A stretch of 64,000 bases of DNA from Cytophagales bacterium (GTDB taxonomy: Bacteria > Bacteroidota > Bacteroidia > Cytophagales > Cyclobacteriaceae): assembly GCA_027317105.1 (NCBI GenBank), contig DAHVFH010000039.1:7891-71890 (forward strand). The letters run 5' to 3'. A program made the translations under genes and the position numbers. The notes beneath the pieces are model-generated. The model was not told the DNA's origin. It worked only from the letters and a program-made list of their open reading frames with translations, and made no database searches. Positions 24,045 through 44,105 of the stretch are shown here, one piece after another. The stretch's first letter is position 1; each line of letters begins with the position of its first letter.

Positions 24045-24083
24045 TATGATCTGAGTCATAAAAAAGTATGATTTAAATCATAC
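24045..24083. promoter_or_regulatory. Two tandem FNR-like palindromes upstream of the nos operon
   Basis: TATGATCTGAGTCATA (24045-24060) and GTATGATTTAAATCATAC (24066-24083), with centres 22 bp apart, 56-94 nt upstream of the cytochrome c ATG. A TACTTTCG (near TAnnTTTG) element lies at 24016-24023 on the minus strand. Confidence 0.6.
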
Positions 24084-24183
24084 TCAGACGAGGTTAAGGG
24101 CAGAACACCAGGTATTGTGAGGATCGAAAATTTTGTTAATGCAAGAGTGATTTTCTAAAGGCTAAAATTTGCAATCAAATTTT

Positions 24184-24936
24184 TTATTCAGCTGGTAATT
24201 TATTATGAACAATAAAACTGATGGAAAGGAGTAACGACATAGCCAAGACGGCAGGAAGCGCTATGAAGAGCCATCCTAATCCAGGTCTATTTTTACCTGT
24301 TTTGGGATCGTAATTAAAGCAAGAGAACAATATGTTTTTATTGGGTAACCGATACGTAGGTGAGTAAATATTATTGACACTACTAATTAATAAATCCAAA
24401 TCTAGTTTATCCCTTATCCCAATTAATTTTTTTGTGATATATCCTTCTTTATTTATTCCGACCAAAAGCGCATCATGGTCATATTGGCTTCGTACGCTGT
24501 CCCAGCGCGGATAAAAGCCAATGGATTGATTTAGTAACGCAATACTATCGGTAACGGCAAAAATCCATTTTTTATTGTTTTCTAATCCTAGCTTTTGCGC
24601 CAGAAGATTCATATCTCCCAACCTATCTCTTGGATCAAAACTAAGAACTAAAATAGTGAAAGGATTATCACTGTTTATGAATTGCAAATTCTCCTTTAGC
24701 TGTAATAAAAAAGGATTGCATACGCCCGCGCACTTTGTAAAAATGAGTGCTAAGAGTAGCGGCTTTTTATTATTGAGATCAGTGAAAGTAAGTTGTTGGT
24801 TTCTGCTTACGCGTATAGGGGCGTTATAGATTCTTTCGTAAATATTTGTTTCCTCCTCAATACCTGAAGCTGTTTGAGCATTCGCAAAAAACCAGGAATT
24901 TATCGTTACGAAGGTGAAAACAATATTTTTAAACAT
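24184..24936 (-). CDS. senC: SCO1/SenC-like copper chaperone with C-terminal TM anchor
   Basis: Thioredoxin-fold CxxxC (FTKCAGVCNP) with a downstream YDHDALLVGINKEGYI (SCO His motif). Overlaps the end of the heme-copper subunit I gene. Confidence 0.7.
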   Translation of the reverse strand: MFKNIVFTFVTINSWFFANAQTASGIEEETNIYERIYNAPIRVSRNQQLTFTDLNNKKPLLLALIFTKCAGVCNPFLLQLKENLQFINSDNPFTILVLSFDPRDRLGDMNLLAQKLGLENNKKWIFAVTDSIALLNQSIGFYPRWDSVRSQYDHDALLVGINKEGYITKKLIGIRDKLDLDLLISSVNNIYSPTYRLPNKNILFSCFNYDPKTGKNRPGLGWLFIALPAVLAMSLLLSISFIVHNKLPAE

Positions 24937-26345
24937 CCTTTATAAATCTTAAAAAAGAAAATTAAAATTGCAGTTAAATATATAGTAGCAAAAATGGCTC
25001 CCATGGTAGCCAAAGGTGCAGCGGCAGTAAAATCTGTTGGGTAGTTACTGTATCTGCGAGGAATTGAATCCGCTCCACCAATATAAAAAGCTAAAAGAAA
25101 CCCAATCCCACCTATCAGGAGTATTGCCAATGTTAGCTTTGTAAATTTTCCATCTTCAATATTTTTAGTAAACTGATTGGTGAACCAATAAAAGAATGCA
25201 AGGCTAAACAACACGTTTCCCATGGCGTTATAGGTGTGAAAATGTGCTGGGACCCAAAGGGTATTGTGAAGGAGGACATTGTTCGTGATGGTCGCATCAA
25301 TCACAGCTCCGAGACCTCCAATCACCCAACCTGCTACACCAATAAAAAATAGCAAGTTGGTAAGCGACCATTTTATTTCGGTACGATAGACCGCTATAAA
25401 CACACTAAACACTGTAACTCCCGCGGCAGGTAAACTTGCCAGATAGGACGCTAATTGTCCTATAATTTGGAATCCTTCAGGTTGAGCAAAATCCATATAT
25501 AAATGATGGAAAAAGGCGGTAAGGATAAAAATCAAAGTAAGGTTCCATGCCAACGCTACATACCATGTAGTTCTCCATTTTGGCCTTCCACTAACTTCTG
25601 AAAACAACTCGTAGATAACAGCTAGACCTAAATAGAGCATTTCATTCGCTATTGTATGCCCGAAAAAATAAGTAAGGTTTTTCATCAATAATGCATCATT
25701 CAAAAAATTGCCGTTTGAGAAATATTCAGCAAAAAATAGGGCGATTAGAATCACTGCGGCAAACAGACAGGTAATAATGCCAATCAGCGTAATCATTGTA
25801 ATAAGGATGAAAGGTGGTGTTTCTACTTTTGGATTTTTCCTGAAATGTTGCCAGGCGAATACTTGAGCTATCGAGTATTTTTTAAGTAATTGAGTCATCA
25901 AGCTTATACTCCAAATTAACCATCCGAGGCCAAACACCGTTAAAGAAACTAAAAAAAGTGGAGTTGCCCACGTTGCCCACATTACCTTAAATGGCAATGG
26001 ATAAAGGAAAGTCCATCCTGCATGAAATTTTCCTACGAAAGTAGTGGTCCAGAAAATCAATACACCAATAACCGTAAGCACGTAAGCGATAACATTTGCT
26101 GTGTAACTTGTTTTTACATAACGCTGCATTAAATAATTAACTGCTGCCATGCCTGCCACAAACCAAATACCAATCATGGTAAGCCCATGAGTAGTCATAT
26201 TTGAGTAAAAAGTGATAGGCGATTGTTCAATAATCTCTCCCTGGTTGAGCCGCATAAGTATGCCAAGGACGATACTGACAATGAACAAAACGAGTACAGT
26301 GATAATCCAAACAGCGGTGATTTTTTTTATTTTTATGGATTCCAT
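24906..26345 (-). CDS. Heme-copper oxidase superfamily subunit I, sNOR-like (candidate nitric-oxide reductase)
   Basis: 12-TM protein with H53 (TTHGLTM), H230 (FFGHTIAN), H280/H281 (AFFHHLY) and H368/H370 (AHFH). The helix-VI motif is H-T-I-A-N (25644-25658) rather than H-P-x-V-Y. Confidence 0.75.
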   Translation of the reverse strand: MESIKIKKITAVWIITVLVLFIVSIVLGILMRLNQGEIIEQSPITFYSNMTTHGLTMIGIWFVAGMAAVNYLMQRYVKTSYTANVIAYVLTVIGVLIFWTTTFVGKFHAGWTFLYPLPFKVMWATWATPLFLVSLTVFGLGWLIWSISLMTQLLKKYSIAQVFAWQHFRKNPKVETPPFILITMITLIGIITCLFAAVILIALFFAEYFSNGNFLNDALLMKNLTYFFGHTIANEMLYLGLAVIYELFSEVSGRPKWRTTWYVALAWNLTLIFILTAFFHHLYMDFAQPEGFQIIGQLASYLASLPAAGVTVFSVFIAVYRTEIKWSLTNLLFFIGVAGWVIGGLGAVIDATITNNVLLHNTLWVPAHFHTYNAMGNVLFSLAFFYWFTNQFTKNIEDGKFTKLTLAILLIGGIGFLLAFYIGGADSIPRRYSNYPTDFTAAAPLATMGAIFATIYLTAILIFFFKIYKGCLKILFSPS

Positions 26346-26366
26346 GATCTTATGATTTATGCATTT

Positions 26367-26918
26367 CTATTTAACTATAAAGGATGATCTCATGCCATGA
26401 TGGGCCATTCCACAAAACTCCAAGCATAGAATGTTGTACTTGCCCGGCTCTTTAAACTTATGTCGGAGGCGGTTTACATAGCCGGGCATAGCCTGAGTTT
26501 GAGTGATTAAGGTGTTTGATTGATCGTAGATTGCAAAACCATGATTTACATCGAGACTCGTAACCCTGAATTCGACCAGTTCATTAGCGGGTAATTCTAT
26601 AGGTTCGCCAGAAGGACTTTTAGGATCAATAGCCTTTTCAGAAAGGATGAAAGCAAATTGCATTGCTGACACATGAACTATTTTTTTCGGAGTTTCATCA
26701 GCAAAAAGAAAATATGGCGACTTTGGAATAGTTACGGATGCAAAAATACCCAGTACTACAAATAGGATGAGTAAAAACCAAAACCGCTTTCTTAAGGGAT
26801 TGGACATTCCTTGCTTTTCTTGTCCTGCCTTTTTTGAAGAGGCATATACGTAAGTAAAGACAACCGTGGTTATGCCAGCCAAGATTAGAAATACTAGTAA
26901 GATCATTTGTTGTTGCAT
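26367..26918 (-). CDS. Heme-copper oxidase subunit II-like CuA cupredoxin protein
   Basis: Two N-terminal TM helices, with CuA ligands in LDVNHGFAIY and CLEFCGMAHHGM. Confidence 0.8.
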   Translation of the reverse strand: MQQQMILLVFLILAGITTVVFTYVYASSKKAGQEKQGMSNPLRKRFWFLLILFVVLGIFASVTIPKSPYFLFADETPKKIVHVSAMQFAFILSEKAIDPKSPSGEPIELPANELVEFRVTSLDVNHGFAIYDQSNTLITQTQAMPGYVNRLRHKFKEPGKYNILCLEFCGMAHHGMRSSFIVK

Positions 26919-27086: not shown

Positions 27087-27108
27087 CTTTATGATTCTGA
27101 TCATAAAG
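27087..27108. promoter_or_regulatory. FNR-like palindrome upstream of the NOR-like operon
   Basis: CTTTATGAT-TCTG-ATCATAAAG is a perfect 9+4+9 inverted repeat. It lies between the Crp-family gene stop and the subunit II start. Confidence 0.55.
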
Positions 27109-27136: not shown

Positions 27137-27736
27137 TTAAACCAGAATTTTGTGTTTTTGCAAACGAAGCTTGCCAGCGGCTTCTAATTTTTTAACTGTT
27201 CGGATAATGGTTTCTACCCGCAAGCCCGTCATGTCGGCCATTTGTTGGCGTGTCAATGAAATTAGAGACTGTGCCCGGTAATCCGTATTACCCCTGGTTT
27301 CATTTTTCAGCCGATTCAATAAATTTAGTACCCTGTTTTCGGGACGATCAAAGGCAATCGAAGCGAGCGCTTTATTTTTATTGCGAAGGCGTTCACATAA
27401 AATCTGATCCAGCTTTAAATGGAGGTCAAAATTATTTTTGATTAAATCGAAAAAATCTTCTGTCCTCATCTTCCATATGCTTGAATTTTCTAGTGCAACT
27501 GCAGTGCTCGGATAAGGAAATTTGGAAAGGATCGGAGGTTCACCAAAGCTTTCTCCTTTGTGGGCAATTCCCTGAATAAATTCCTGCCCTTCATCACTGC
27601 GTGAGATCATTTTAACAGCGCCTGTTTCGAGTTGAAAATAATGGAAGGCATCTTCTCCTTCCCTAAAAATAACAGCTCCTTTTTTGAACTTAATAAGTAT
27701 CGCATGATAGGTCTCAAGAATTTTTCTTGCTATCAT
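27137..27736 (-). CDS. Crp/Fnr-family transcriptional regulator (Dnr/NnrR-like, no N-terminal Cys cluster)
   Basis: cNMP-binding-like beta-roll (FREGEDAFHYFQLETGAVKM) and a C-terminal HTH LTRQQMADMTGLRVETIIRTVKKL. It lacks the FNR Cys motif. Confidence 0.85.
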   Translation of the reverse strand: MIARKILETYHAILIKFKKGAVIFREGEDAFHYFQLETGAVKMISRSDEGQEFIQGIAHKGESFGEPPILSKFPYPSTAVALENSSIWKMRTEDFFDLIKNNFDLHLKLDQILCERLRNKNKALASIAFDRPENRVLNLLNRLKNETRGNTDYRAQSLISLTRQQMADMTGLRVETIIRTVKKLEAAGKLRLQKHKILV

Positions 27737-27909
27737 TTTACATGAGGGTTAGCATCTTTACTTTCCGTTTTCTTATCCTCAAAAAGCATCCGCACAGACG
27801 GCCCATAGGTGTCGTCATATTGCCCGGTTTTCATGTTCCAGATAAAAGCGCCTAGAAAGGCTATGGCAATGGTAAGCGAAATGAAAATGAGCAGGATGAT
27901 GATTTCCAT
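27733..27909 (-). CDS. ccoS: CcoS/FixS (cbb3-type oxidase maturation protein), 58 aa, absent from the ORF track
   Basis: Minus-strand translation gives MEIIILLIFISLTIAIAFLGAFIWNMKTGQYDDTYGPSVRMLFEDKKTESKDANPHVK. One TM helix plus the GQ(Y/F)DD signature. It lies directly downstream of ccoI, and its stop overlaps the regulator's ATG (ATGA). Confidence 0.8.
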   Translation of the reverse strand: MEIIILLIFISLTIAIAFLGAFIWNMKTGQYDDTYGPSVRMLFEDKKTESKDANPHVK

Positions 27910-27926
27910 GTGGCTTGCTTTAAAAG

Positions 27927-30338
27927 TTATAGCTTATTTCTGAATGCTCGCTCACCAACCCAATTGACAGCCAGCGTACTAAACCCCACTACGCTGACAC
28001 TGCTGATCGGCATAAGGATAGCCGCAATGAGTGGCGATAGATTTCCAGTAATGGCAAAACTGAGCGTAATAAAATTATAGAGAAACGAAATGCCAAATGC
28101 TATTTTCAGGATGACGATCGCTGATTTACTTAAAGCAAGAAATTGGTTTAAGTTTTTCAGTTGTTTGCCCAGTAGAATACCATCGCTGGCCGGAGTGAAG
28201 ATGCCGGTGTCGTCTGTCACGGCTACGCCCAAGTCACTTTGTTTTAATGCACCCGAATCGTTGAGACCATCGCCTACCATCATCACGCGATGGCCATTTT
28301 GCTGGAGGTTAGAAACGAAATGAAGCTTGTCTAATGGGGTTTGATTGAAATAAAGCCCCTTGTCAGAAAGAAAAACCGATTGCATCCGCCCTTTTTCTGA
28401 AGGGTTATCGCCCGAAAGCAAAAAGACCGACAGTTTGGTATTGATCTTGGCGATCAATTCTTTCAACCCGTTTCGCAATGACGTTTCGATTTTGAAATAG
28501 CCGCGTACCTCGCCATCAATCGAAACAAAAACCATAGATTGACTTTCGGTAATTACTTTTTCAAATCCAACAAACCGAGCAGATCCTATTTTTAACTGAT
28601 GATTGATTATCACGCCTGCAATTCCTTCTGAAGGAACTTCCTCGAAAGTAGAAAGTGGCATTGGTGATGCCGCTATTGACTTGGCAATAGTGCGACTTAG
28701 CGGATGGACGGATGAGGCCGTGAGTGCTTTCACCATACCGAGCTCTTCAGAAGAAAGTGTGCCATTAAACGTAATGGTTGATGCGCCTTGCGTTACCGTG
28801 CCAGTTTTGTCGAAGACAATTGAATCGATGGCGGCCATCCGCTCGATCACATCGGCATTTTTTAAATAGAAACCATTTCGCCCAAACACGCGGAGCATAT
28901 TGCCAAAAGTGAATGGTGCTGCCAAGGCCAGCGCGCAAGGGCAAGCCACAATCAACACCGAAGTGAAAATCAACCACATTTGGTTGGGTGAAACAAAGTG
29001 CCAATAAATGGCCGTCATTGCGGCAATGCCTAAAATCACCCAGGTGAATTTTTGAGCAACGGTGTCAATCATTTTTTTGTATCGGCTCTCTTCATTTTTA
29101 TGAAATGTCTCATAGTTCCATAGGCTCGTCAGGTGACTTTGCGCTATTTTTTTCTCTACCACAAATTCAGCAGGTTGTCCAATCAATCTTCCCCCGCCAT
29201 AAATCAAGGCTCCCTCTTGAACATGCACAGGCTTTGATTCACCAGTCACAAAACTGTAATCGATGAAAGCTTGTTTGCTCATTAAATAGCTATCCGCGGG
29301 AACAATTTCCATATTCCTTATCTGGATTATATCTCCTTTTTCCAAATGATGAACCAGAAGGGGGTTCCAATCGTTGTCGATTTTCTTATTGACCGCTAGC
29401 GGGAAATACGATTTGTAATCCCTGTCAAAGGCAAGGCTGTCATACGTTTTGCTTTGAAACCACCGACCGATCAGCAAAAAGAAAACGAGTCCTGAAAGTG
29501 AGTCGAGATAACCAGGGCCTTGATGGGCGAGGATGTCGTAAGCACTGCGTAAAAAAAGTACGGCAAGTCCCACGGCAATCGGCACGTCAATGTTGATCCG
29601 CTTTTGCCTGAAGCTTTTCCATGCCGCTATGAAGTAGTCTTGACCACTGTAAAGAACCACAGGCATTACTAGAAGCAGATTTAAATATGAAAATAAAGTG
29701 CGTAGTTGAGCGTCTGAATTATCGAGCCCCAGGTATTCTGGGAAACTGAGCATCATGATGTTGCCAAAACAGAAACCAGCCACAGTAAGCCGGATAATTA
29801 ACGCTTTGCTAAGTGCCGCTGTCGGCTTTATCTCTTCCAATGTAATCAACGGGGCATATCCCAAAGAAGATAGCAATCTGGCCACTGCAGCTAGTGAAAT
29901 TTTGCTGGGGTTAAAATCGAGGGTGATTTGCCTGTGGCTGAAATTTACTTCTGACCGGATCACGCCACTGTTTAGGCGTTTTAGGTTTTCCAGTAGCCAT
30001 ATACAGGAGATGCAGTGGATATTGGGGATGGAAAATTGTGCCCTGCTGAAAGAATCGGATTGGAAGGTTATTATTTTTTTTGCAATCTCCGGATCGTCAA
30101 GAAAAGCAAAACTTTCTTCGCGTACATGACGCAACGAGACGCCCGGACTTTCGTCAAGGGAATAGTATTCGCAGAGATTGTTTTCGTCCAGGATTTCATA
30201 TACGGTTTTGCATCCATAGCAACAAAAGGAATTTTCTCCGGAAAGCACCACTTCCTTTTCACATACCAATCCACAGTGGGCGCATTTCACCGTGCGCTCA
30301 ACGGGTAGGTTGGCTATTTCCAACAGGTCACTGTTCAT
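27927..30338 (-). CDS. ccoI: Copper-translocating P1B-type ATPase, CcoI/FixI type
   Basis: N-terminal Cys-rich CcoI-type domain (CAHCGLVCE...CCYGCKTVYEIL), HMA CxxC (HCISCIW), CPC (ACPCALALA), DKTGT and GDGLND. Confidence 0.9.
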   Translation of the reverse strand: MNSDLLEIANLPVERTVKCAHCGLVCEKEVVLSGENSFCCYGCKTVYEILDENNLCEYYSLDESPGVSLRHVREESFAFLDDPEIAKKIITFQSDSFSRAQFSIPNIHCISCIWLLENLKRLNSGVIRSEVNFSHRQITLDFNPSKISLAAVARLLSSLGYAPLITLEEIKPTAALSKALIIRLTVAGFCFGNIMMLSFPEYLGLDNSDAQLRTLFSYLNLLLVMPVVLYSGQDYFIAAWKSFRQKRINIDVPIAVGLAVLFLRSAYDILAHQGPGYLDSLSGLVFFLLIGRWFQSKTYDSLAFDRDYKSYFPLAVNKKIDNDWNPLLVHHLEKGDIIQIRNMEIVPADSYLMSKQAFIDYSFVTGESKPVHVQEGALIYGGGRLIGQPAEFVVEKKIAQSHLTSLWNYETFHKNEESRYKKMIDTVAQKFTWVILGIAAMTAIYWHFVSPNQMWLIFTSVLIVACPCALALAAPFTFGNMLRVFGRNGFYLKNADVIERMAAIDSIVFDKTGTVTQGASTITFNGTLSSEELGMVKALTASSVHPLSRTIAKSIAASPMPLSTFEEVPSEGIAGVIINHQLKIGSARFVGFEKVITESQSMVFVSIDGEVRGYFKIETSLRNGLKELIAKINTKLSVFLLSGDNPSEKGRMQSVFLSDKGLYFNQTPLDKLHFVSNLQQNGHRVMMVGDGLNDSGALKQSDLGVAVTDDTGIFTPASDGILLGKQLKNLNQFLALSKSAIVILKIAFGISFLYNFITLSFAITGNLSPLIAAILMPISSVSVVGFSTLAVNWVGERAFRNKL

Positions 30339-30345
30339 GAAGCAA

Positions 30346-31176
30346 TCATTTGGTCTTATACGTCCAGATAGGGCACTCGATGTGATTCACCACATCTTCC
30401 GCAATGCTTCCGCTCATCAGGTGGGCAAGGCCTGTTCGCCCATGGGTGCCCATGGCTACCATGTCGGCCTTTACTTCTTTTGCGAAATTTGTAAGCCCAG
30501 ACTCTTGATTGATATCGTTGAAGATATTGATGGTAAAATCTCTGAACATATAACGTTTAGCAAACCCATTGAGGAGCTGACGTGTCTCTAGGTCGCGTTT
30601 AAAATTCGAAGGCGTGTTGATGTAAACAATGTGCAGTTTAGCTTTAAAGAAATCCTGCAATTTTTTGACTTGGGTAGCTAGTACTTCTTCCTCTTCCTGA
30701 AGGGCATTTGGGAAAACGATATTCTTGATCGCACCTTTGCTGTATTTCTTGATGGCAATCATCGGCACAGAAGAAAGCCGCACTATCTTTTCGGTGTTCG
30801 AGCCTACAATAATTTCCTTCAATCCGGAAGCCCCTCGGGTACCCATTACGATAAGGTCAACCTTATTCTCTTGTGCCATGTTAATGATGGAAGAGGCCGT
30901 AGGGCCGTAGGCTACTTCCCATGTTATCTTTGGTCCTTCCTTGGCCCACTTGGCTTTCATTTTTGAGAAGTTTTTCAATGCACTTTCCTTGCTGTCCTTC
31001 AAGTAAACTTCCTCTAAAGAAAGTGAGGGCATAAGCATGGTGTCGTACATCACCGGAAGTTCTATTACGTGAAGCAAAATCACCTGTCCGTCACTCTCGT
31101 TGGCAAGATCGATGGCAAACCGAAAAGCGTTGGTGGCAGATTCAGAAAAATCGCAGGGTACTAATATCTTTTTCAT
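30346..31176 (-). CDS. Universal stress protein (tandem Usp domains)
   Basis: MKKILVPCDFSE...GTRGASGL and a second domain ending GTHGRTGLAHLMSGSIAE. The start was moved to 31176. Confidence 0.85.
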   Translation of the reverse strand: MKKILVPCDFSESATNAFRFAIDLANESDGQVILLHVIELPVMYDTMLMPSLSLEEVYLKDSKESALKNFSKMKAKWAKEGPKITWEVAYGPTASSIINMAQENKVDLIVMGTRGASGLKEIIVGSNTEKIVRLSSVPMIAIKKYSKGAIKNIVFPNALQEEEEVLATQVKKLQDFFKAKLHIVYINTPSNFKRDLETRQLLNGFAKRYMFRDFTINIFNDINQESGLTNFAKEVKADMVAMGTHGRTGLAHLMSGSIAEDVVNHIECPIWTYKTK

Positions 31177-31232
31177 AAAGTATTTGATTTGTTGTAACAA
31201 AGAGGTAGGTATTGAAATATTTCGTTTTAGAT

Positions 31233-32087
31233 TCAATTAGAGTTAATCACATACGTTAATACAGGCATGGAAGAATGGTTAATCACATCCTCCGTTATGC
31301 TGCGGCTTAAGACACTGGAGAATCCTGTTCGTTTTCGGGAAGCCATAGCAATTGCGTCTGCTTTTATCCCCGAGGCGAAATGAAGGATTCCTTCTTCTTC
31401 CTCATAATCACTAAAGACATTCAATGTGTAATTGGTCAAGTTCATTTTTGCTACAAAGTTTGCCATTTCTTTTTTTACTTCGTGATCGGGTTGGAATTCC
31501 ATTGGCGTGTTGACCCTTACCAAATGGAGCGTAGCGTAGTAAGTTTCCTGCATCAACTTCACGATTTCAATGAAGCTTCTTTCCCCTTCGTTTAAGGAGG
31601 TAGCATAAACAATGTTTTTGTATTCTGTTGTAGTTGGTTTTTCGTGAACAGAAAAGACCGGTCGTTTTGAGTATCTTACCACTCTTTCGGTATTTGAACC
31701 GATCAAAGCCTCTTCTATTTTCGTGCGCCCGGATGTGCCCATCACTACTAAGTCAGCTTTGAAAGCTGAAATGATGGATCGTATTCCATGGAAAGGATTG
31801 CCAATCTTCAGCTGAGTGTAAATGATCACTTCTGAAGTCTTGACACTCCGTTCTGCTTCTTCTAATAGGTTTTTACCCTTATTTATGAGTTCCAACACAT
31901 AACGTTTTTCTTCCTGATTTGAATAGCCTGCAATCTGCTCCTCAGCATTAAAAGACAATTCCATAGGCTGCTCTATGACATGCAACAAGATGATATCAGC
32001 CTTTGTTTTCCTGGCAATACCGATCGCAGTTTCAAGTGCCCATTGTGCTGGTTGGGAAAAATCGGTTGGCACAAGTATTTTTTTCAT
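31233..32087 (-). CDS. Universal stress protein (tandem Usp domains)
   Basis: MKKILVPTDFSQ...GTSGRTKIEEALIGSNTE plus a second Usp domain. Confidence 0.85.
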   Translation of the reverse strand: MKKILVPTDFSQPAQWALETAIGIARKTKADIILLHVIEQPMELSFNAEEQIAGYSNQEEKRYVLELINKGKNLLEEAERSVKTSEVIIYTQLKIGNPFHGIRSIISAFKADLVVMGTSGRTKIEEALIGSNTERVVRYSKRPVFSVHEKPTTTEYKNIVYATSLNEGERSFIEIVKLMQETYYATLHLVRVNTPMEFQPDHEVKKEMANFVAKMNLTNYTLNVFSDYEEEEGILHFASGIKADAIAMASRKRTGFSSVLSRSITEDVINHSSMPVLTYVINSN

Positions 32088-32210
32088 GGTCATAACCTTG
32101 TCATCAAAAAAAAGAGAGATTTAGACTACCTAAATTTCATTTCAAAAATATTCTTGAGTAAAGATCGATGTTCATGGACAACAGATGGCCTTAACAGGCT
32201 CATAAAAAAA

Positions 32211-32226
32211 TATGATTTTGATCATC
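32211..32226. promoter_or_regulatory. FNR-like palindrome upstream of the USP-ccoI gene string
   Basis: TATGAT-TTTG-ATCATC flanked by A7 and T5 tracts, about 125 nt upstream of the USP ATG. Confidence 0.5.
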
Positions 32227-32378: not shown

Positions 32379-32816
32379 TCAGGCTATGGCAAGAATGTGT
32401 GCTGAATCTGGAACAATTACCAATGGCACTTCAATGTGTGTAAGCAGTTCGTCTACCGATTCTTTGTTGTTGTTAATCAGTTCTTTGCTCATGACCACGA
32501 ATAAAACGTTACCGTGGCTAACGTGTTCTTGAACCCTGCCTTGAATGAATCCAATTTCGGATTGAAAATCATATGATAGTGTTTTGTTTTTGAACAGTTT
32601 TTTGGCAACGACTTCAAAATTTCTACTCGCTTCTTCCTCCATTTTATTTTTTGCGGAAAGCATATTATTGTCTTTTGCTAAGAGGTTGAGTCGTTGTGGG
32701 TGTGAAATGTTAAGGTGAGCACTCAACTTCTCGGCCATACTTGCAGCCCACTCCAATGCTTGAATGGAGGATTTCGAAAAATCAATAACGCACAAGATAG
32801 ACGGTGCTTTTTTCAA
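32379..32816 (-). CDS. Universal stress protein (single domain, divergent)
   Basis: 145 aa with a Usp-like N-terminus (ILCVIDFSKSS..ALEWA) and a VPLVIVP C-terminal strand. The ATP-binding Gly motif is not evident. Confidence 0.6.
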   Translation of the reverse strand: MKKAPSILCVIDFSKSSIQALEWAASMAEKLSAHLNISHPQRLNLLAKDNNMLSAKNKMEEEASRNFEVVAKKLFKNKTLSYDFQSEIGFIQGRVQEHVSHGNVLFVVMSKELINNNKESVDELLTHIEVPLVIVPDSAHILAIA

Positions 32817-32898
32817 AGGGATTAGGTATTACTATTATTTATTAGGTAAAGGTCTGTGTCTTGAGTAATAGAAACATCCATGTGGGTCAGTGGAAAAA

Positions 32899-32912
32899 AT
32901 GATTTTAATCAT
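32899..32912. promoter_or_regulatory. FNR-like palindrome in the divergent USP / histidine-kinase intergenic region
   Basis: ATGAT-TTTA-ATCAT preceded by A6, 26 nt upstream of the kinase ATG and about 90 nt upstream of the USP ATG. Confidence 0.5.
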
Positions 32913-32937
32913 GTAACTTGCCTCCTTAACTTGTTAA

Positions 32938-34194
32938 ATGCCGGCATCTTTTGAACTTTCAGTCGTATCCAACGAAGCTTTTCGAGAGATTTTTCAAAGC
33001 ATGACTGAGGGTATTATTGTGATTGACAAATCCGGAAAAATATTGGTAGCCAATAGGGTGGCGGAAGAAATGTTTGGGTACAAGCAAAATGAACTGAGTG
33101 GAAAGGATTTGGAAGTGCTTTTGCCTGAAGAGTATAAAAGTGGCCACGTTAAACTTCGCGATAACTTTAATAAGAATCCATCACCGAGAAGGATGGGGCA
33201 TGGTAGGGATCTTAAAGCATTAAAGAAAGACGGAAAGGAATTTCCAGTGGAAATTAGCCTAAGTTATTCACAGACTGAAGATAGTTTCATTGCCATCGCA
33301 TTCATCAGCGATATTTCGTGGCGCAAAAATTCAGAGGAAGCTATGAAAAGGAGCGAGGAGCAGCTTATTGTCTATGCCTCAGAGCTTGAACGGAAAGTAA
33401 AGGCTCGTACGGAAGATTTAAATTCTAGTATCCAAGAGCTTGAACGTGAGATAATTGAACGAAAGAAAGCGGAAGAAGAGGCGCTGAAATCAGTAGAACG
33501 GGAGCGTGAGCTTAGCGAGCTGAAATCCAAGTTTGTTTCCATTGCTTCACACGAGTTTCGTACACCACTTAGTACAGTGCTTAGTTCCATCGCGCTAATT
33601 GAGCAATATAAGGAACGGGGCGAGCTGGATAAGATCGATAAACACACCAATCGTGTGCGGTCTTCCGTAAAGCATTTGACGACTATCTTGGATGATTTTC
33701 TTTCACTTGGAAAATTAGAAGAAGGAAAGGTTGACTTGGCGAAAGAGCCAGTAAATCTTGACAGCCTGCTGATGGATATTATTGAGGAAATGCGCGCATC
33801 CCTTAAAGAAGGACAGCAAATTGTGATCGATAAAATTCCTGATCTACACCTCCTTACAGATGGCCGAATTTTACGTAATATTTTGTTCAACTTAATTTCC
33901 AACTCCAGCAAATACTCAGGACCCAATAAACACATTTTCATTAGCTGCTCACTCAAAGAAAGTGTCATCAAAATCAGCATTCGCGATGAAGGGATGGGCA
34001 TTCCTCCCCAAGAACAGAAGCATTTGTTCGAGCGGTTCTTCAGGGCTAGCAATGTGACTTCTATTCAAGGGACAGGCCTTGGGCTGAACATTGTGAAAAG
34101 ATATGTGGAGTTGTTGAACGGCTCGATAAATTTTGTAAGTGAATATGGAAAAGGCAGTACCTTTGCGATAACTATTCCGATTGAACAACGATGA
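32938..34194 (+). CDS. PAS-domain sensor histidine kinase (cytoplasmic)
   Basis: S-box PAS (GIIVIDKSGKILVAN...LLPEEYKSGHVKLRDNF...GHGRDLKALKKDGKEFPVEISLS), coiled-coil linker, H-box FVSIASHEFRTPL, N-box and G-boxes (DEGMGI, GTGLGL). No TM segment. Confidence 0.9.
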   Translation: MPASFELSVVSNEAFREIFQSMTEGIIVIDKSGKILVANRVAEEMFGYKQNELSGKDLEVLLPEEYKSGHVKLRDNFNKNPSPRRMGHGRDLKALKKDGKEFPVEISLSYSQTEDSFIAIAFISDISWRKNSEEAMKRSEEQLIVYASELERKVKARTEDLNSSIQELEREIIERKKAEEEALKSVERERELSELKSKFVSIASHEFRTPLSTVLSSIALIEQYKERGELDKIDKHTNRVRSSVKHLTTILDDFLSLGKLEEGKVDLAKEPVNLDSLLMDIIEEMRASLKEGQQIVIDKIPDLHLLTDGRILRNILFNLISNSSKYSGPNKHIFISCSLKESVIKISIRDEGMGIPPQEQKHLFERFFRASNVTSIQGTGLGLNIVKRYVELLNGSINFVSEYGKGSTFAITIPIEQR

Positions 34195-35252
34195 AAAAAA
34201 TTCTATTAATCGAAGACAATCTTGAGGTTAGGGAAAACACGGCAGAGATCCTTTCCCTGGCAAACTACGAAGTACTCACAGCCGAAAACGGAAAGGTGGG
34301 CGTAAAGCTCGCCTTCGAAAAATTACCGGACCTGATCATTTGTGATATCATGATGCCCGAGCTTGACGGCTATGGGGTCTTGCATATTTTAGGGAAAGAT
34401 GCCACTGCTTCGCTGATCCCCTTTATCTTCCTTACGGCCAAAGCGGAAAAATCTGAAATAAGAAAAGGGATGAACCTTGGTGCGGATGACTACCTCACCA
34501 AACCCTTTGATGATACCGAGCTTTTGAATGCCGTGGAAGCTCGACTTAATAAACAGTCGATGCGCACCAAGGAATACCATAATACCCTTGAGGGGCTGGA
34601 TAACTTCATCATCGATGCACAGAAAATTTTGAAGCTCAATGACCTCTGCAAAGACCGGAAATTAAAACACTTCAAAAAGAAAAGTGAAATTTTTATGGAA
34701 GGGGATCTCCCACTTAATATTTTCTTTGTAAAATCGGGTAATGTAAAAACTTTTAAATCCAATCAAGACGGAAAAGAACTGATCACCAATCTTTATGGGC
34801 CCAGTGATTTTTTTGGATTTGAACCAATAATAGAAAACATTCATTACCGGGAATCAGCCGTTGCGCTTGAGGATACTGAAATTGTGCAAGTGCCAAAACA
34901 GGATTTTCTTACTTTGCTGTTTGGCCAACCCGATGTTTCCTCAAGTTTTATTGGCTTATTATGCAAAAAGGTAGCTGATAAAGAAAATCAGTTACTCAAC
35001 CTGGCCTACAATTCAGTGCGGCAACGGATAGCGGAAGCACTGTTGAAACTGGCGGAAGGAAAAACAGAAAAAGATAACATACACATATCGCGCGAAGATT
35101 TAGCGAAAATAGTGGGCACCGCACCGGAGTCTGTAATTCGTGGTCTTTCCGATTTTAAAGAAGAAAAGCTCATCGAAATTGAAAGTGGAAAAATAAGAGT
35201 AATTCACCCTAAAGGCCTAGGGAAAGTAGTGCGATGGAATGTAGCCTTGTAG
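34191..35252 (+). CDS. Hybrid response regulator: REC domain fused to Crp/Fnr-type effector and HTH domains
   Basis: REC (ILLIEDN...LIICDIMMPELDG...LTAK...KPF), then a cNMP-binding-like beta-roll (FMEGDLPLNIFFVKSGNVK) and a Crp HTH (ISREDLAKIVGTAPESVIRGLSDF). ATGA overlap with the kinase gene. Confidence 0.85.
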   Translation: MKKILLIEDNLEVRENTAEILSLANYEVLTAENGKVGVKLAFEKLPDLIICDIMMPELDGYGVLHILGKDATASLIPFIFLTAKAEKSEIRKGMNLGADDYLTKPFDDTELLNAVEARLNKQSMRTKEYHNTLEGLDNFIIDAQKILKLNDLCKDRKLKHFKKKSEIFMEGDLPLNIFFVKSGNVKTFKSNQDGKELITNLYGPSDFFGFEPIIENIHYRESAVALEDTEIVQVPKQDFLTLLFGQPDVSSSFIGLLCKKVADKENQLLNLAYNSVRQRIAEALLKLAEGKTEKDNIHISREDLAKIVGTAPESVIRGLSDFKEEKLIEIESGKIRVIHPKGLGKVVRWNVAL

Positions 35253-37095: not shown

Positions 37096-37098
37096 TTC

Positions 37099-38923: not shown

Positions 38924-39150
38924 GTCTTGACTCTTCCGGTCACCTTTCCGGCAAGCTTGAATGAGCTTCTGAAGTTCTTTGTCCGCTATCGTTTCAATAA
39001 TCTACAAAATAAGGTATGTTGTGTACTTTTCATTCACGTGATCTTCTGCGGAAGGGTTGGTAGCCTAAATACTTTTATGTTGAAAACCAACCATTTTGAA
39101 AAGCATTGCGTAATTTATGAAAATGATGGATTCTGCCTGATACAATTTAC

Positions 39151-39519: not shown

Positions 39520-39520
39520 G

Positions 39521-39895
39521 ATGAAAAACAAAATCGTCCTTCTCATAGTTTTTACATTCTTGTTAGCCAGTGGCTGTTACTATGATTCGTTTGAAGCGCT
39601 TCACCCTTTAGATGGCTACATCAATCCTTGTGACACTACGTTGCAGTCCACGTACACCTCTTCCATTCAACTCATCATTACCTATAACTGCATCTCCTGC
39701 CACAATGCAACTTATGCGGGCGGAAATGTTAATCTTACCACTTATGATCAGGTAAAACTGTATTCCAGCAATGGAAAGATCCCGAATTCTATTTTAAGAA
39801 ATTCAGGATACAACCCAATGCCACCAACCCAGGCGCTTGCGGCTTGCCAAACTCAACGAATTCAACAATGGATCACCAACAACTACCCGCAATGA
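39521..39895 (+). CDS. Small lipoprotein with a PSCyt1-like CxxCH domain
   Basis: The start was moved to MKNKIVLLIVF (39521). Lipobox LLASGC. YNCISCHN...NPMPPTQALAACQTQRIQQWITNN. Confidence 0.55.
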   Translation: MKNKIVLLIVFTFLLASGCYYDSFEALHPLDGYINPCDTTLQSTYTSSIQLIITYNCISCHNATYAGGNVNLTTYDQVKLYSSNGKIPNSILRNSGYNPMPPTQALAACQTQRIQQWITNNYPQ

Positions 39896-40776
39896 AAAAA
39901 AACCTATTCTTAATTTTTTTTCTTTCTTCCTCATTCAACCTCATCGCACAGAGTTTACTTGACGAGGTGGAAAAGAAATCGCCATCACCAAAAGATCATA
40001 CCATCGCCACCTTTAAAGGAACACGGTTGGTGAACTTTCACACCGTAGAAACCCTTCGAAAAGGATCTTTGGAAGTAAGGATAGCCCATCGTTTTGGTGC
40101 CTTCTCTGGTGGCGCCACCACCTTCTGGGGATTGGACGGCCCAGCCACTATCCAATTGCGAATTGATTATGCTATCACTGATCGACTGATGGTTGGACTG
40201 GGTCGCGCCTCCGATCATAAGATGGTGGATAGTTTTGTGAAATATCGAATTCTTCGACAAACCACGAACGGGTCGATGCCAATTTCGGTTACTGGACTCG
40301 CGAGTGTAAATGTAGACTCAGAACCGAACAGTTTATTAGGGGTGGACTATTATCAATATTTCAGTAGTCGATTAGTGTACATGGCCTCAACGATGATTGC
40401 ACGAAAATTCAATTCCAAATTTAGCTTGCAGATTAGTCCTGTGTATATTCATTACAACCAGGTGCAAAACCTTACCGATAAAAATGATATGTTTAGCCTG
40501 GTGGGGTCGGGGAGGTATAAATTTACAAAGCGGACAGCATTAACGTTTGAATATATGCAGCGGGTTACTACTTATTCTGCAAACATGTCGCAATATCATA
40601 ATGTGTTGAGTATTGGTTTTGATATTGAAACCGGAGGTCACGTATTCCAGGTCTTTGTGACCAACGGCTATTCGATCAATGAGGTTCGAACCATTCCCTA
40701 TACTACATCAGGATTTTCTAAGGGTATGATGTTGGGCTTCAATCTTTCACGGGTTTTTTCAACGCGTAAAAAATGA
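39892..40776 (+). CDS. Secreted beta-barrel-like protein (resembles the DUF5777-type family; assignment from memory)
   Basis: The start MKKNLFLIFF (39892) overlaps the previous stop (ATGA). Signal peptide. GTRLVNFHTVETLRKGSLEVRIAHRFG and the C-terminal strand GFNLSRVF. Confidence 0.5.
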   Translation: MKKNLFLIFFLSSSFNLIAQSLLDEVEKKSPSPKDHTIATFKGTRLVNFHTVETLRKGSLEVRIAHRFGAFSGGATTFWGLDGPATIQLRIDYAITDRLMVGLGRASDHKMVDSFVKYRILRQTTNGSMPISVTGLASVNVDSEPNSLLGVDYYQYFSSRLVYMASTMIARKFNSKFSLQISPVYIHYNQVQNLTDKNDMFSLVGSGRYKFTKRTALTFEYMQRVTTYSANMSQYHNVLSIGFDIETGGHVFQVFVTNGYSINEVRTIPYTTSGFSKGMMLGFNLSRVFSTRKK

Positions 40777-41401: not shown

Positions 41402-41448
41402 CTTCTCTTAAAATTGTTTTGGTTAAAATTATTTGTTTGGTAAAAGAA

Positions 41449-41859
41449 TCAACCTGATATCGTAAGTGTTGTACCGCTTAATGTTACTTTATACTGTGCT
41501 AATGCCGAAGGGGGTGGCCCACTTACTACTTGCCCTGTGCTGTTGTAAACCCCACCGTGACAAGGGCAGGTGAATTGCTTGGAAGAACCACTATAGTTTA
41601 CTGTGCATCCGGCATGGGTGCAAATCGAAGACAAAGCAATGTAGGTTGATTTAGCTGTGCATATAATGTATATTCCTTGATCCAGAATAAAGCCTCCAAT
41701 GGTATTTAAAGCTTTATTAGCGGAGGCCGTAAGGTCAACAGTAAAATTGGCCGTTGGTTTAGGGCTTACCCCATTTTGCGCGCAGCTTTGCAATAGTTCC
41801 AACAGAACACCTATTCCGAGTACTCCACTCGTGTTGGCTATGAATTCCCTTCGTTGCAT
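41449..41859 (-). CDS. Rieske [2Fe-2S] domain protein with Tat-type signal
   Basis: MQRREFIANTSGVLGIGVL, CTHAGC...CPCHGG. Confidence 0.85.
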   Translation of the reverse strand: MQRREFIANTSGVLGIGVLLELLQSCAQNGVSPKPTANFTVDLTASANKALNTIGGFILDQGIYIICTAKSTYIALSSICTHAGCTVNYSGSSKQFTCPCHGGVYNSTGQVVSGPPPSALAQYKVTLSGTTLTISG

Positions 41860-41946
41860 ATGTATTTTGTTATTTGGATTTTCCTTTCCCTTTATTCACG
41901 AAGAAATGTTGTAAAGGGTTGGTCAAATTAAACCCTAAAAAAAAAG

Positions 41947-41980
41947 GCAGGTTGATAACCTACCTTTTTTGAGATGTTGA
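41947..41980 (-). terminator. Rho-independent terminator after the cytochrome c-porin-cytochrome c operon
   Basis: AAAAAAAAA-GGCAGGTT-GAT-AACCTACC-TTTTTT forms an 8-bp stem with one mismatch, flanked by A and T runs. It starts 7 nt after the stop of the 93-aa cytochrome gene. Confidence 0.6.
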
Positions 41981-41986
41981 TGGATA

Positions 41987-42268
41987 TTATCGCGCAGCCT
42001 GGAGAAATTCTACAATTTTATTGCGTTCCGATTCTGTGATTAAGGCTCGTGTTTGCATGTGCATGCCAATCGTTTCCCATTGATCTCCTGAGAAAGAGCC
42101 CGGGGCAGGAGTATTATGACAGTGTTGGCAATTTTCTGCCCACAACTGGGCACCTGATTTGGAAGCTACCTTTTGACTGGCTACGCAACTTGCAATCGTG
42201 AAGGCAGTGACAACAGCAAATCCTATGGTTGAGATGAATCCGATTTTATTTATCAGTAGTTTTTTCAT
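41987..42268 (-). CDS. Small monohaem c-type cytochrome lipoprotein
   Basis: Lipobox-like TIASC. CQHCHN with a downstream HMQTRA Met region. 93 aa. Confidence 0.65.
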   Translation of the reverse strand: MKKLLINKIGFISTIGFAVVTAFTIASCVASQKVASKSGAQLWAENCQHCHNTPAPGSFSGDQWETIGMHMQTRALITESERNKIVEFLQAAR

Positions 42269-42282
42269 GGCAATTTTGTTGA

Positions 42283-43542
42283 TTACAATTGAATGGAAAA
42301 TTGAATATGGAATGCCTGTGTTTTGGTATTCGGTACTGGTGATGTGAATAAGCTTTGATCAACCGTACTCTTCGAGTTAAGAACCTCGTAAGTGACGCGT
42401 ACTACGGTTCGCCAATTGATCCAGTAGTTAAGGCCATAATCCGTTTGCGTGGTATTGGCACCCCAGACGGAGTTTTTAGGTGTATTATATTGACCATACC
42501 GAAACGCCAACTCTAAATTTTTTATAAAATCTATTTGTGACTCTGTTGGTCGAATGGAAAGTTGTCCATATCCGGAAGTAGAACTGTTGTTGAAGGTGTA
42601 TGATTTTGTTGCATCTAACGGATTAACATAAGTCGCTGTTCCCACGTCTACGACATTATACTGACTTTTTACATTAATAAGCACAGGGCTCAAATTCTTT
42701 ACATAGTTAAGGTCAAACGCATACAGATTGGCCCGAACGTCTGCATAAGTCATATTACCATTTGATACTCCTCCTGTCATTCCGGAAACACCTATTTCAA
42801 GTGAATTATTTGAAAAGGGTAATAGCCCTAACCGACCAACAAATGTTTTGTTACGCGCAGCAGCACCTAAGTTGACATTTGTTAATGTTCCGTTATTCAC
42901 AGTGGGGTCGATTGTTAACCCGTTTGTAACAGCAAGGTCATAGTTCCATTTCATGGATCCTAACGGCAGACCACCGGATACGCCAAATCCATAATCTTGG
43001 GCTGTTGGTAAACCAATAGGGTCTGTAGCAACCTTGTTAATCCATGCCGCTGCCAATTTTTTTGTGTACATACCAAAAGGTACAACGAAATAACCACCCC
43101 TAAAAATTAGGTTTGGTTTTGCGAAATAGGATATGGCGGCCCAGTTAACGCCAACACCGTCATTATTGAAGGATGGCTCAAATTCCAATAACACTTTTTT
43201 TCCTTGTCTCCATAAAAGCATTGGGCTAAATTCATACGAATCGGTGCCAAATGCACTTGCCTTTAGCGGGGCAGACCCATCGTTGGATGTTGTCTTTCCG
43301 CTTGCATAGCCAAAAGTTGTTAATCCAACTACTACAAAATGATCCAGCCCTGGTTTATGCAAGGCCGCGTGTTTCTCCAACATTGCAATTCTTGCATCAG
43401 TGACTGAATCTTTTTTTGCTTGTTCTTCCCTGGTTAGCATTTGTTGCGCATCAGCTAGATTAAATACCAAGCACCAAGTGGCTACCGTCAGAATCCCAAC
43501 CGTAGATACTCTTTTTCGTTTATTCCAAATATAATTTTCCAT
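42283..43542 (-). CDS. Outer-membrane porin (OprO/P-like architecture)
   Basis: Signal peptide, N-terminal coiled segment (LTREEQAKKDSVTDARIAMLEKH), then about 16 amphipathic strands, ending FHIQFSIQL. Confidence 0.6.
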   Translation of the reverse strand: MENYIWNKRKRVSTVGILTVATWCLVFNLADAQQMLTREEQAKKDSVTDARIAMLEKHAALHKPGLDHFVVVGLTTFGYASGKTTSNDGSAPLKASAFGTDSYEFSPMLLWRQGKKVLLEFEPSFNNDGVGVNWAAISYFAKPNLIFRGGYFVVPFGMYTKKLAAAWINKVATDPIGLPTAQDYGFGVSGGLPLGSMKWNYDLAVTNGLTIDPTVNNGTLTNVNLGAAARNKTFVGRLGLLPFSNNSLEIGVSGMTGGVSNGNMTYADVRANLYAFDLNYVKNLSPVLINVKSQYNVVDVGTATYVNPLDATKSYTFNNSSTSGYGQLSIRPTESQIDFIKNLELAFRYGQYNTPKNSVWGANTTQTDYGLNYWINWRTVVRVTYEVLNSKSTVDQSLFTSPVPNTKTQAFHIQFSIQL

Positions 43543-43557
43543 AGCTGATTGTGTTTT

Positions 43558-43980
43558 TTATTTTTTCGAAGACGCTTCAAGTTTGCGAATGTAGTTGACC
43601 AGCTGCCACCGTTGGGTTTCGGTTAGCATTCCTTTATAGGAAGCCATTGGTGGATTGCCTTCAGTGAGTTTCCAAAAAACTGCACCATCACTTTCTTCAC
43701 GCACGGAGATGGCCAAAAAATTTGCTGGCCTTGGCTCAAGACTTACCCCTGCCGCCCCATTTCCTTTACCTTTTTCCCCATGGCAAATGAAACACATGGA
43801 CTCATAGATTTTCTTTCCGGCAGCTACGGCCGCCTGATCGTTCTTAAATGGATTTGTAAGCTTGTCGGCAGAAGCAGGAGCCTTCCATGTCGACTTTTGT
43901 GCTATAACATTTATCGATACGAATAGCAGAACAACAAGCATGACTGATAATTTTAAAAATGTGAAGATTGATAGGTTCAT
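43558..43980 (-). CDS. Class I c-type cytochrome
   Basis: Signal peptide, CFICHGEKGKGNG, distal Met in NPPMASYKGMLT. 140 aa. Confidence 0.8.
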   Translation of the reverse strand: MNLSIFTFLKLSVMLVVLLFVSINVIAQKSTWKAPASADKLTNPFKNDQAAVAAGKKIYESMCFICHGEKGKGNGAAGVSLEPRPANFLAISVREESDGAVFWKLTEGNPPMASYKGMLTETQRWQLVNYIRKLEASSKK

Positions 43981-44087
43981 AGTGTTTAATTTTTGCTGTT
44001 AGTGATTTGAATTAGTTCTCCTTAGTGAATTATGGGACAATACTACAATTTGGGGTATGCCTAATTGATGATAGGCGTCAAAGGGGG

Positions 44088-44105
44088 ACATGATTTACAT
44101 CATGT
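44088..44105. promoter_or_regulatory. FNR-like palindrome upstream of the cytochrome c-porin operon
   Basis: ACATGAT-TTAC-ATCATGT is a perfect 18-nt palindrome followed by T6, 108-125 nt upstream of the cytochrome c ATG. Confidence 0.5.

Follow-up and report, generated by a model that had tools for sequence, protein, structure and literature searches.

Putative CRP/FNR-type operators of two classes in a low-oxygen and nitrogen-oxide gene neighborhood of a Cytophagales bacterium

Bacteroidota with clade II nosZ are regarded as important N2O sinks, and we know of no NosR in their clade II nos clusters. Here we analyze one such neighborhood, a 64,000-nt stretch (hereafter, the window) of a Cytophagales genome (contig DAHVFH010000039.1 of assembly GCA_027317105.1, positions 7,891 to 71,890). 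It holds a clade II nos operon, an operon for a heme-copper enzyme resembling nitric oxide reductase (NOR), three genes for universal stress proteins (USPs), ccoI and ccoS, and a cytochrome c–porin operon (Table 1). Amidst these lie the genes for a 199-residue Crp/Fnr regulator (Crp199), a heme-PAS histidine kinase, and a response regulator with REC, cNMP-binding, and HTH_Crp domains (REC-Crp). Between the genes are six copies, s1 to s6, of an inverted repeat, which we term the box and which is the subject of this study. In the searchable literature we found no description of how clade II nos is regulated in Bacteroidota and no mention of this box: for ATGAT-N4-ATCAT the literature yielded only canonical FNR-box papers, and neither Rodionov 2005 nor Matsui 2013 deals with the clade or the motif.

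Table 1. Features of the window, with genes grouped into presumptive operons. Class scores are log-likelihood ratios (positive, class A; negative, class B-like).
Feature	Position	Strand	Remarks
clade II nos operon: cytochrome c, nosZ, 205-aa membrane protein, nosL, nosD, nosF, nosY; then fasciclin, CopD-like, cupin, truncated globin	15968..23989	-	
predicted sigma-A -7 box of nos promoter, TACTTTCG	24016..24023	-	29.5 nt downstream of s1
box s1, TATGATCTGAGTCATA	24045..24060	.	class A (+13.1), 18.4 bits; proximal nos-promoter site, centre about -41.5
box s2, TATGATTTAAATCATA	24067..24082	.	class A (+6.3), 20.0 bits; distal nos site, 22 bp upstream of s1, about -63.5
NOR-like operon: COX2-like, COX1-like (Tyr-less), SCO1/SenC-like	24184..26918	-	
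box s3, TATGATTCTGATCATA	27090..27105	.	class A (+12.3), 18.7 bits
crp199, Crp/Fnr regulator, 199 aa, nos-linked	27137..27736	-	one Cys; recognition helix RVETIIRT
usp286-usp296-ccoI-ccoS string ending in crp199	27733..32093	-	gaps/overlaps -4, 7, 17, -4 nt
ccoS, 58 aa	27733-27909	-	stop codon overlaps crp199 start
box s4, GATGATCAAAATCATA (read toward usp286)	32211..32226	.	17.7 bits, class score +1.2; promoter of usp286-usp296-ccoI-ccoS-crp199
usp145	32379..32816	-	divergent from kinase gene
box s5, CATGATTAAAATCATT (read toward usp145)	32898..32913	.	class B-like (-4.7), 17.0 bits; between usp145 and kinase gene
FixL/DosP-like heme-PAS histidine kinase	32938..34194	+	PAS, HisKA, HATPase_c domains
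REC-cNMP-HTH_Crp fusion response regulator (REC-Crp)	34191..35252	+	recognition helix APESVIRG
cytochrome c, putative OprP-like porin, cytochrome c, Rieske operon	41449..43980	-	
predicted -7 box of cytochrome-porin promoter, TAGTATTG	44038-44045		
weaker second box, TTTGACGCCTATCATC (toward cytc140)	44067..44082	.	8.9 bits; 22 bp downstream of s6, about -41.5
box s6, CATGATGTAAATCATG (read toward cytc140)	44089..44104	.	class B-like (-5.2), 16.0 bits; centre about -63.5

Six intergenic boxes in the window

A prior sequence-only reading of this DNA had listed by eye six intergenic boxes, five of them perfect in both cores, and had put the chance expectation of such a pattern below one per 64 kb. 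An exact search of the window for ATGATNNNNATCAT returned five matches, at 24068, 27091, 32212, 32899, and 44090, as opposed to a mean of 0.11 in 100 dinucleotide shuffles, none of which reached five; the sixth copy, ATGATCTGAGTCAT at 24046, departs from it by a single mismatch. All six fall between open reading frames (ORFs); a greedy ORF cover leaves about 7% of the window as non-coding. Further, when all 5-mer palindromes with spacers of 2–6 nt were enumerated, ATGAT emerged as the top one with a 4-nt spacer. The positions, the intergenic placement, the five perfect copies, and the low chance expectation thus all hold.

We scored the boxes with a weight matrix seeded solely on TGA-N6-TCA sites near crp199 orthologues of other genomes, with the flanks left free and without iteration. 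The six boxes score 16.0–20.0 bits and are the only sites of at least 14 bits in the window, where 0.89 would be expected; the runner-up, at 1357, reaches 13.4 bits. The reading had allowed for copies overlooked inside coding sequence, and none of comparable quality is present. An iteratively refined 20-bp matrix was dropped, having drifted to a degenerate motif (from 117 to 204 sites, with 2.7 background matches per window). The TGA-N6-TCA inverted-repeat core that typifies operators of the CRP/FNR family is present in 6/6 boxes and is invariant in the orthologous sites, and the canonical FNR/ANR/DNR box, TTGAT-N4-ATCAA, has no copy in the 64-kb window. By its letters, therefore, the box appears to be what it had been taken for, a CRP/FNR-type operator that varies the FNR/Dnr site by an A for T beside the TGA. 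A fourth TATGA-N6-TCATA, TATGAAATGTCTCATA at 29099-29114, lies within ccoI and scores 11.2 bits; judged from this low score, it probably reflects chance.

Conservation of the boxes in related loci

Related loci (designated by L numbers) were selected for carrying one of the two regulators. Relatives of Crp199 in reference genomes are all from Cytophagales (45–64% identity), and a metagenome scan with the alignment of these relatives added 80 loci. Unbiased enumeration over 78 non-redundant loci with crp199 orthologues (44–64% identity; 552 kb) recovered ATGAT-N4-ATCAT as the top N4 palindrome (42 copies, the next having 14) and TATGA-N6-TCATA as the top N6 palindrome (69 copies, the next having 10). 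Thus, the ATGAT core seen initially stands, but the conserved unit is a 16-mer, TATGAY-N4-RTCATA, rather than the 14-nt ATGAT-N4-ATCAT. TTGAT-N4-ATCAA is not enriched, with 3 copies in the 552 kb of related loci.

The related loci contain 130 sites of at least 14 bits, 82% of which are intergenic though only 11% of this DNA is non-coding; hence, the box is far from equally frequent in coding and non-coding sequence. The genes below these sites include crp199, cytc-nosZ, fasciclin, ccoNO, truncated globin, NirK, OsmC, an Rrf2 regulator, and USPs. The largest target cluster outside the gene set of the window comprises 21 ORFs of the RIC/YtfE/DnrN type (DUF2249-ScdA_N-hemerythrin). Together these genes make up what a regulon for nitrogen oxides and low oxygen would contain.

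At orthologous promoters the boxes are conserved across about 85 related Cytophagales loci. The nos boxes s1 and s2 have counterparts in L001, L002, L006, L007, L012, L039, L053, L058, L063, L075, L086, L092, and others. For s4, a related box precedes usp296 in both L001 and L002, as ATGATCACAATCAA with TATTTTTG at the class II distance. A box 32.5–38.5 nt upstream of the kinase start codon matches s5 in 6/6 loci (L091-L096); the divergent USP-kinase pair is kept in L092-L096, and L091 retains the box though the opposite side lacks a Pfam-recognized USP gene. L092 reproduces the whole arrangement of the window, inclusive of the usp-usp-ccoI-ccoS-crp synteny, and there one box, lying between the kinase gene and usp144, stands at the head of the entire string. 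Boxes corresponding to s6 precede the orthologous cytochrome-porin operon in 3/3 loci (L097, L098, and L099; 52–85% protein identity), and L099 has the same tandem pair as the s6 promoter. The expectation that the boxes would be found at orthologous promoters is thereby borne out for the nos, USP/kinase, and cytochrome-porin promoters and, through a related box, for the USP/ccoI string; the NOR-like operon, taken up below, is the exception. In L001 and L002 the box in the place of s3, after crp, drives cytc-nosZ directly, and the NOR-like operon of the window therefore looks like an insertion behind that box. Consistent linkage is also seen for the regulator: crp199 orthologues adjoin a clade II nos cluster in 20/27 loci whose flanks extend 3 kb or more on each side.

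Two further arrangements were observed in this set. In L097 (6669-6706), boxes TTTGACAAAAATCAGT and TTTGATGGATGTCATC stand 22 bp apart, as do the tandems of the window, and precede a USP gene located after the cytochrome-porin operon. L095 (5247-7326) holds a second REC-cNMP-HTH_Crp paralogue, with the helix TESLNR, that is divergent from a USP gene, and boxes at 6133 and 6155, again 22 bp apart; the USP-regulator module seems to have been duplicated here with a changed helix.

Two classes of box

The reading had supposed one box and one regulon. The low-oxygen and N-oxide character of the genes is upheld, but the sites resolve into two statistically distinct classes with different target genes. 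Class A is the symmetric TATGAYynnrRTCATA; it marks nos, RIC/YtfE, fasciclin, globin, and nirK, and it recurs at crp199 as a distal site about 210 nt ahead of the gene. Class B is the oriented nCTGAYAAAARTCATn, found 54.5–58.5 nt upstream of crp199, at ccoNO and USPs, and between the divergent USP and kinase genes; the orientation of its A-tract spacer tracks the downstream gene. N-oxide targets have both outer TA dinucleotides in 41/56 cases versus 5/58 for O2-type targets, and an A4/T4 spacer in 4/56 versus 42/58, respectively (Fisher p ~1e-13 in each case). Many loci hold both classes before the same crp gene, at the fixed and differing positions of 58.5 and ~210 nt. By the log-likelihood score, s1, s2, and s3 belong to class A, and s5 and s6 are class B-like. 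Class B boxes in the window and its closest relatives carry A, not C, beside the TGA, and therefore a single box was what was seen first.

In a subgroup of 15 loci (L013, L020, L031, L035, L040, L042, L045, L048, L051, L054, L057, L068, L069, L073, and L077), crp199 is extended upstream in frame by a conserved stretch of ~55 aa, MKKxxxPSxLxDYNSIWNPLLxAF... (e.g., L051:5770-5990). A class A box lies ~44 nt upstream of the upstream ATG, and the stretch itself contains a class B box, 58.5 nt ahead of the short start and accompanied by a -7 box of its own. Two promoters could yield a long and a short form of Crp in this subgroup; the arrangement is absent from the window.

Promoter geometry

In the sigma-A promoters of Bacteroidetes the -7 box, TAnnTTTG, spans -12 to -5 (PMC9723704). 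Since these promoters differ from those a sigma-70 scanner is built for, we looked for the -7 box itself. Measured from the site centre, a TAnnTTTG-like -7 box begins at exactly 29.5 nt in 31/42 class B sites proximal to crp and at the same distance in 11/21 distal sites; among the class A sites the distance is 29.5 or 30.5 nt in 17/37, and in the ccoNO promoters it is 51.5 nt in 7/7. Given the span of the -7 box, the 29.5- and 51.5-nt spacings place the box centres at a predicted -41.5 and -63.5, approximately. The nos promoters of L001, L002, L006, and L053 likewise have a -7 box (TAnnTTcG) at the 29.5-nt distance.

In the window, s1 and s2 of the nos promoter occupy about -41.5 and -63.5 relative to the predicted -7 box TACTTTCG. 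The cytochrome-porin promoter pairs s6 at about -63.5 with a weaker TGA-N6-TCA at about -41.5, upstream of the predicted -7 box TAGTATTG. A TGA exactly 22 bp downstream of the TGA of the box itself recurs in four of the five promoters of the window, with those of s4 and s5 at 32200-32202 and 32887-32889.

Candidate regulators and sensor

Crp199 has one Cys and no N-terminal extension, and thus lacks the cysteine set of FNR (C20, C23, C29, and C122); it is therefore not an Fe-S FNR. It reaches none of the NCBIfam equivalog cut-offs for CRP, FNR, or FixK, and DNR (3dkw, E 5e-12) is among its best PDB matches, several of which are equally distant. Its gene adjoins nos, and class A boxes precede nos, RIC, nirK, and globin, which together suggest a DNR/NnrR-like role for it.

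REC-Crp combines a REC domain with cNMP_binding and HTH_Crp_2 as its output, rather than with the LuxR/FixJ-type HTH of FixJ. Its orthologues are widespread in Cytophagales (70–78% identity). In 6/6 loci the divergent promoter of the kinase/REC-Crp orthologues itself carries a class B box, and in four of these the pair abuts ccoNOQP. In Ohtaekwangia, Chryseosolibacter, and two other genomes, the neighbors of REC-Crp are ccoNOQP-GH and ccoS/ccoI, and ccoNO carries class B boxes. The kinase is a candidate heme-based sensor of the FixL type: 13/14 of the significant PDB matches of its PAS domain are FixL or DosP heme domains (E 1e-10 to 1e-14), and His70 aligns with the proximal His of DosP.

FNR of E. 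coli contacts its box via E209, S212, and R213 (PMC4505428). In 4/4 aligned Cytophagales proteins S212 is replaced by Ile with the Glu and Arg kept, and neither Crp199, REC-Crp, nor their orthologues have the E-x-x-S-R helix of FNR proper. The change to E-x-x-I-R would fit the altered base beside the TGA through a base contact at this position. The REC-Crp helix also covaries with the box: APESVIRG accompanies [T/A]ATGA and ASESVIRV accompanies CTGA, the varying residue aligning with FNR V208.

Stand-alone 238-aa Crp/Fnr proteins are encoded next to usp296-ccoI-crp199-nos at L045:652-1368 and L058:986-1702. They are 40% identical to the Crp half of REC-Crp and have a TETVIR helix and cysteines aligned with C20, C23, and C122 of FNR. 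The comparison suggests that the REC domain may have replaced an Fe-S-sensing N-terminus in the fusion lineage.

Target operons and their neighbors

Profile searches against Pfam and NCBIfam confirmed the three USPs, the CcoI ATPase, nosD, nosL, the COX1/COX2/SCO1-like proteins, and the cytochromes c, in keeping with the earlier placement of the boxes upstream of nos, NOR-like, USP/ccoI, and cytochrome c-porin operons. NosZ is of the Sec-type (clade II), with 942.7 bits against the cut-off of 625 of the TIGR04246 equivalog. Downstream of nosY, and on its strand, come the genes for a fasciclin, a CopD-like protein, a cupin, and a truncated globin (15968-17648, -), which have no boxes of their own in the window; in other genomes the fasciclin and globin genes each carry class A boxes. 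In the window these genes are probably read through from nos.

A missing cross-linked active-site Tyr is a criterion for a non-oxygen-reducing, NOR-type enzyme (PMC11214002). The COX1-like subunit has FFGHTIANEM (HTIAN) in place of HPEVY, with Asn where oxidases carry this Tyr, and scores far below the NCBIfam oxidase cut-offs; the gene order COX2-COX1-SCO1/SenC-like is consistent with an sNOR. This Tyr-less subunit (24906-26345, -) is 76–86% conserved across Cytophagales, Flavobacteriales, Chitinophagales, Saprospiraceae, and Bacteroidales, and is named 'cbb3-type cytochrome c oxidase subunit I' by NCBI. Read as RNA (24062-24090, transcript of the - strand), s2 would form a 9-bp AU-rich hairpin followed by UUUUUU, ~100 nt past the SCO1-like gene, and might in addition serve the NOR-like operon as a weak terminator.

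The 419-aa product of the cytochrome-porin operon (42283-43542, -) has no Pfam or NCBIfam match, and homologues of it across Bacteroidota are annotated as hypothetical. The structural model (predicted local distance difference test 75) is a beta-barrel, with the OprP/OprO phosphate/anion porins as the best match, and the protein may be an anion channel induced at low O2. Kinship with the DUF3570 barrel, a target in L041, was considered and ruled out as the two are unrelated.

Between the kinase region and this operon (37099-40776) lie an ECF sigma factor gene (38432-38923) with a downstream gene for a 446-aa protein and, divergent from the sigma gene, two small cytochrome c-like ORFs and a DUF5777 membrane beta-barrel gene (39151-40776). 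Homologues of the cytochrome c-like/DUF5777 genes adjoin crp199 in L040 and L044; the intervening 38924-39150 in the window has no box.

Alternative explanations and points against the cascade

We weighed the possibility that the boxes are not operators at all, being instead AT-rich palindromes that arose by chance, hairpins or terminators at the RNA level, or targets of another family such as Fur. The boxes can fold into short AU-rich hairpins, a U run follows that of s2, s3 lies 31 nt past a stop codon, and the s6 hairpin (z -9.3) and the s1+s2 pair are more stable than shuffles; moreover, the class B core TGATAAAAATCA loosely resembles part of a Fur box. Chance is excluded by the shuffles, the enumeration, and the matrix scan. 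The main argument against the hairpins is that specific bases are conserved without compensatory changes, and 3/5 of the hairpins are weak: two match shuffles (-1.4 and -2.5 kcal/mol) and that of s3 reaches -7.0 kcal/mol (z -3.5), which led us to reject the terminator proposal. Fur boxes have a central spacer of 1 nt, not 4 nt, and Fur is ruled out by this spacing together with the activator geometry. The strict TGA-N6-TCA spacing, the fixed phasing to predicted -7 boxes (-41.5/-63.5), and the 22-bp tandems are hallmarks of CRP/FNR activators. It is thus very improbable that the boxes are of any of these other kinds; that they are operators of the CRP/FNR type in a low-O2/N-oxide regulon, a proposal drawn from the DNA and protein sequences, is something we hold with considerable confidence.

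Which protein binds which class is less clear-cut. A single regulator, Crp199 or REC-Crp, might bind all six boxes, with the classes mirroring promoter context such as A-tract bending or a UP-like element. The two proteins do share the E-x-x-I-R recognition residues, the six boxes share ATGAY-N4-RTCAT, and s2 and s4 are intermediate between the classes. This proposal has to contend with the separation of the classes by target gene (p ~1e-13), with their occurrence at fixed and differing positions (58.5 and ~210 nt) before the same crp gene in many loci, and with the linkage of each regulator gene to its own site class and targets; we consider it unlikely, if a serious contender. We see still less of a case for class B being bound by a third regulator, for instance an Fe-S FNR encoded outside the window, or for a swap of the classes between the two regulators, and regard either as quite improbable. 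The 238-aa FNR-like protein of L045 and L058 does sit by class B boxes at usp296, and class B sites directly upstream of crp199 in more than 40 loci could be autoregulatory. However, the kinship of the 238-aa protein with the Crp half of REC-Crp suggests that it is probably of the same clade and does the same job, and a gene for this type is absent from the window; further, class B boxes covary with the REC-Crp helix and class A sites lie between crp199 and nos.

Several observations weigh against assigning the two classes to two regulators in a cascade. As Crp199 and REC-Crp share the E-x-x-I-R helix, their sequences by themselves cannot assign the classes, and the covariation of helix and box comes from a single split between two clades. 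The class definitions were drawn up after the target lists had been inspected, the class B boxes of the window share the ATGAT...ATCAT core with class A, and s4, with a score of +1.2, is not clearly classified, having been placed in class B because of its A-tract spacer and orientation toward usp286. The promoter positions depend on predicted -7 boxes, and s5 is centred 32.5 nt from the start codon of the kinase, which clouds its effect on the kinase operon. The exception to the geometry is s3, 31 nt past the crp199 stop codon and 179.5 nt ahead of the COX2-like start codon. It does lie upstream of the NOR-like operon, as the sequence-only reading had it, but it has no -7 box at the expected distance and so lacks the canonical promoter geometry; the NOR-like operons of L100-L102 have no box, so s3 cannot be footprinted. 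The neighbors of the operon in those loci are genes for Rrf2 and RIC, suggesting NsrR-like control in those genomes.

A proposed oxygen-to-N-oxide cascade

Taken together, the best overall explanation of the boxes is probably that they are operators of Cytophagales CRP/FNR activators with two specificities, arranged as a cascade. Activators with the E-x-x-I-R helix would bind [A/C]TGA-N6-TCA[T/G], not TTGA-N6-TCAA. Low O2 would cause the FixL-like heme-PAS kinase to phosphorylate REC-Crp, which in turn would activate the class B promoters, namely those of the USPs, the cytochrome c-porin operon, and the usp-usp-ccoI-ccoS-crp199 string. Activation of the string would raise the level of Crp199. 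Crp199, probably sensing NO or a related N-oxide, would then activate the class A promoters of clade II nos and perhaps the NOR-like operon; we infer the N-oxide co-signal because of the RIC/globin/nirK/nos regulon. This particular assignment of two regulators to two tiers we favor with somewhat greater reserve. More tentatively, and at a little under an even chance, this may be a previously undescribed type of cascade from O2 to N-oxides in Cytophagales: the functions of FixJ and FixK would be joined in one REC–FNR-like fusion that reads an A-tract box and induces a nos-linked regulator with a 16-bp box, the REC domain having replaced the Fe-S-sensing N-terminus of the stand-alone L045/L058 homologue, with long and short isoforms of the second regulator possible in some lineages.

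The boxes thus probably wire an O2-sensing kinase to a second regulator that switches on genes for N2O and NO reduction. The map offered here, with two box consensuses, two candidate regulators, a candidate O2 sensor, and predicted promoter positions, covers roughly a hundred related genomes and metagenome contigs, and could help predict the conditions under which N2O reductase is expressed. It also presents a natural example of a changed operator that goes with one substitution, Ser to Ile, in the recognition helix of CRP/FNR proteins.

Comparison with known systems

The proposed mode of binding recalls E. coli FNR and CRP, which bind as dimers to an inverted repeat at -41.5 (class II) or near -61.5 (class I), and whose Glu/Arg helix contacts are conserved here; the differences are the single Cys of Crp199 with no Fe-S cluster, the predicted position of the upstream site at -63.5, and the 22-bp tandem. 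As in FixL and DosP, the kinase has a PAS domain that matches heme domains and aligns the proximal His, along with HisKA and HATPase_c, and it is thus a putative sensor of that kind; its partner, unlike FixJ (REC + LuxR-type HTH), is a REC-cNMP-HTH_Crp protein. In Campylobacterota (Wolinella and Nitrosophilus), the Crp/Fnr proteins NssA/B/C have been proposed to control clade II nos, nap, and nor via upstream boxes (PMC11539149). These differ in having TTGA-N6-TCAA boxes, in phylum, and in protein subfamily, and a kinase/REC input is not described there.

The closest parallels in logic are ANR-DNR of Pseudomonas and FixLJ-FixK2-NnrR of Bradyrhizobium, in which an O2-responsive tier induces a second heme-type CRP/FNR regulator that activates nir, nor, and nos (PMC6710368, PMC5582078). 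Those systems also have related TGA-N6-TCA operators and a regulon with a dnrN/RIC-type gene, the cbb3 oxidase, and ccoI/ccoS (Rodionov 2005, PMC1274295). The Cytophagales version is set apart by a box with A/C beside the TGA and an outer T in class A, TTGAT-N4-ATCAA being essentially absent; by Ile for Ser212 in the recognition helix; and by promoters with the Bacteroidetes -7 element. Moreover, the functions of FixJ and FixK appear fused in REC-cNMP-HTH_Crp, and the target here is a Sec-type clade II nos cluster without nosR.

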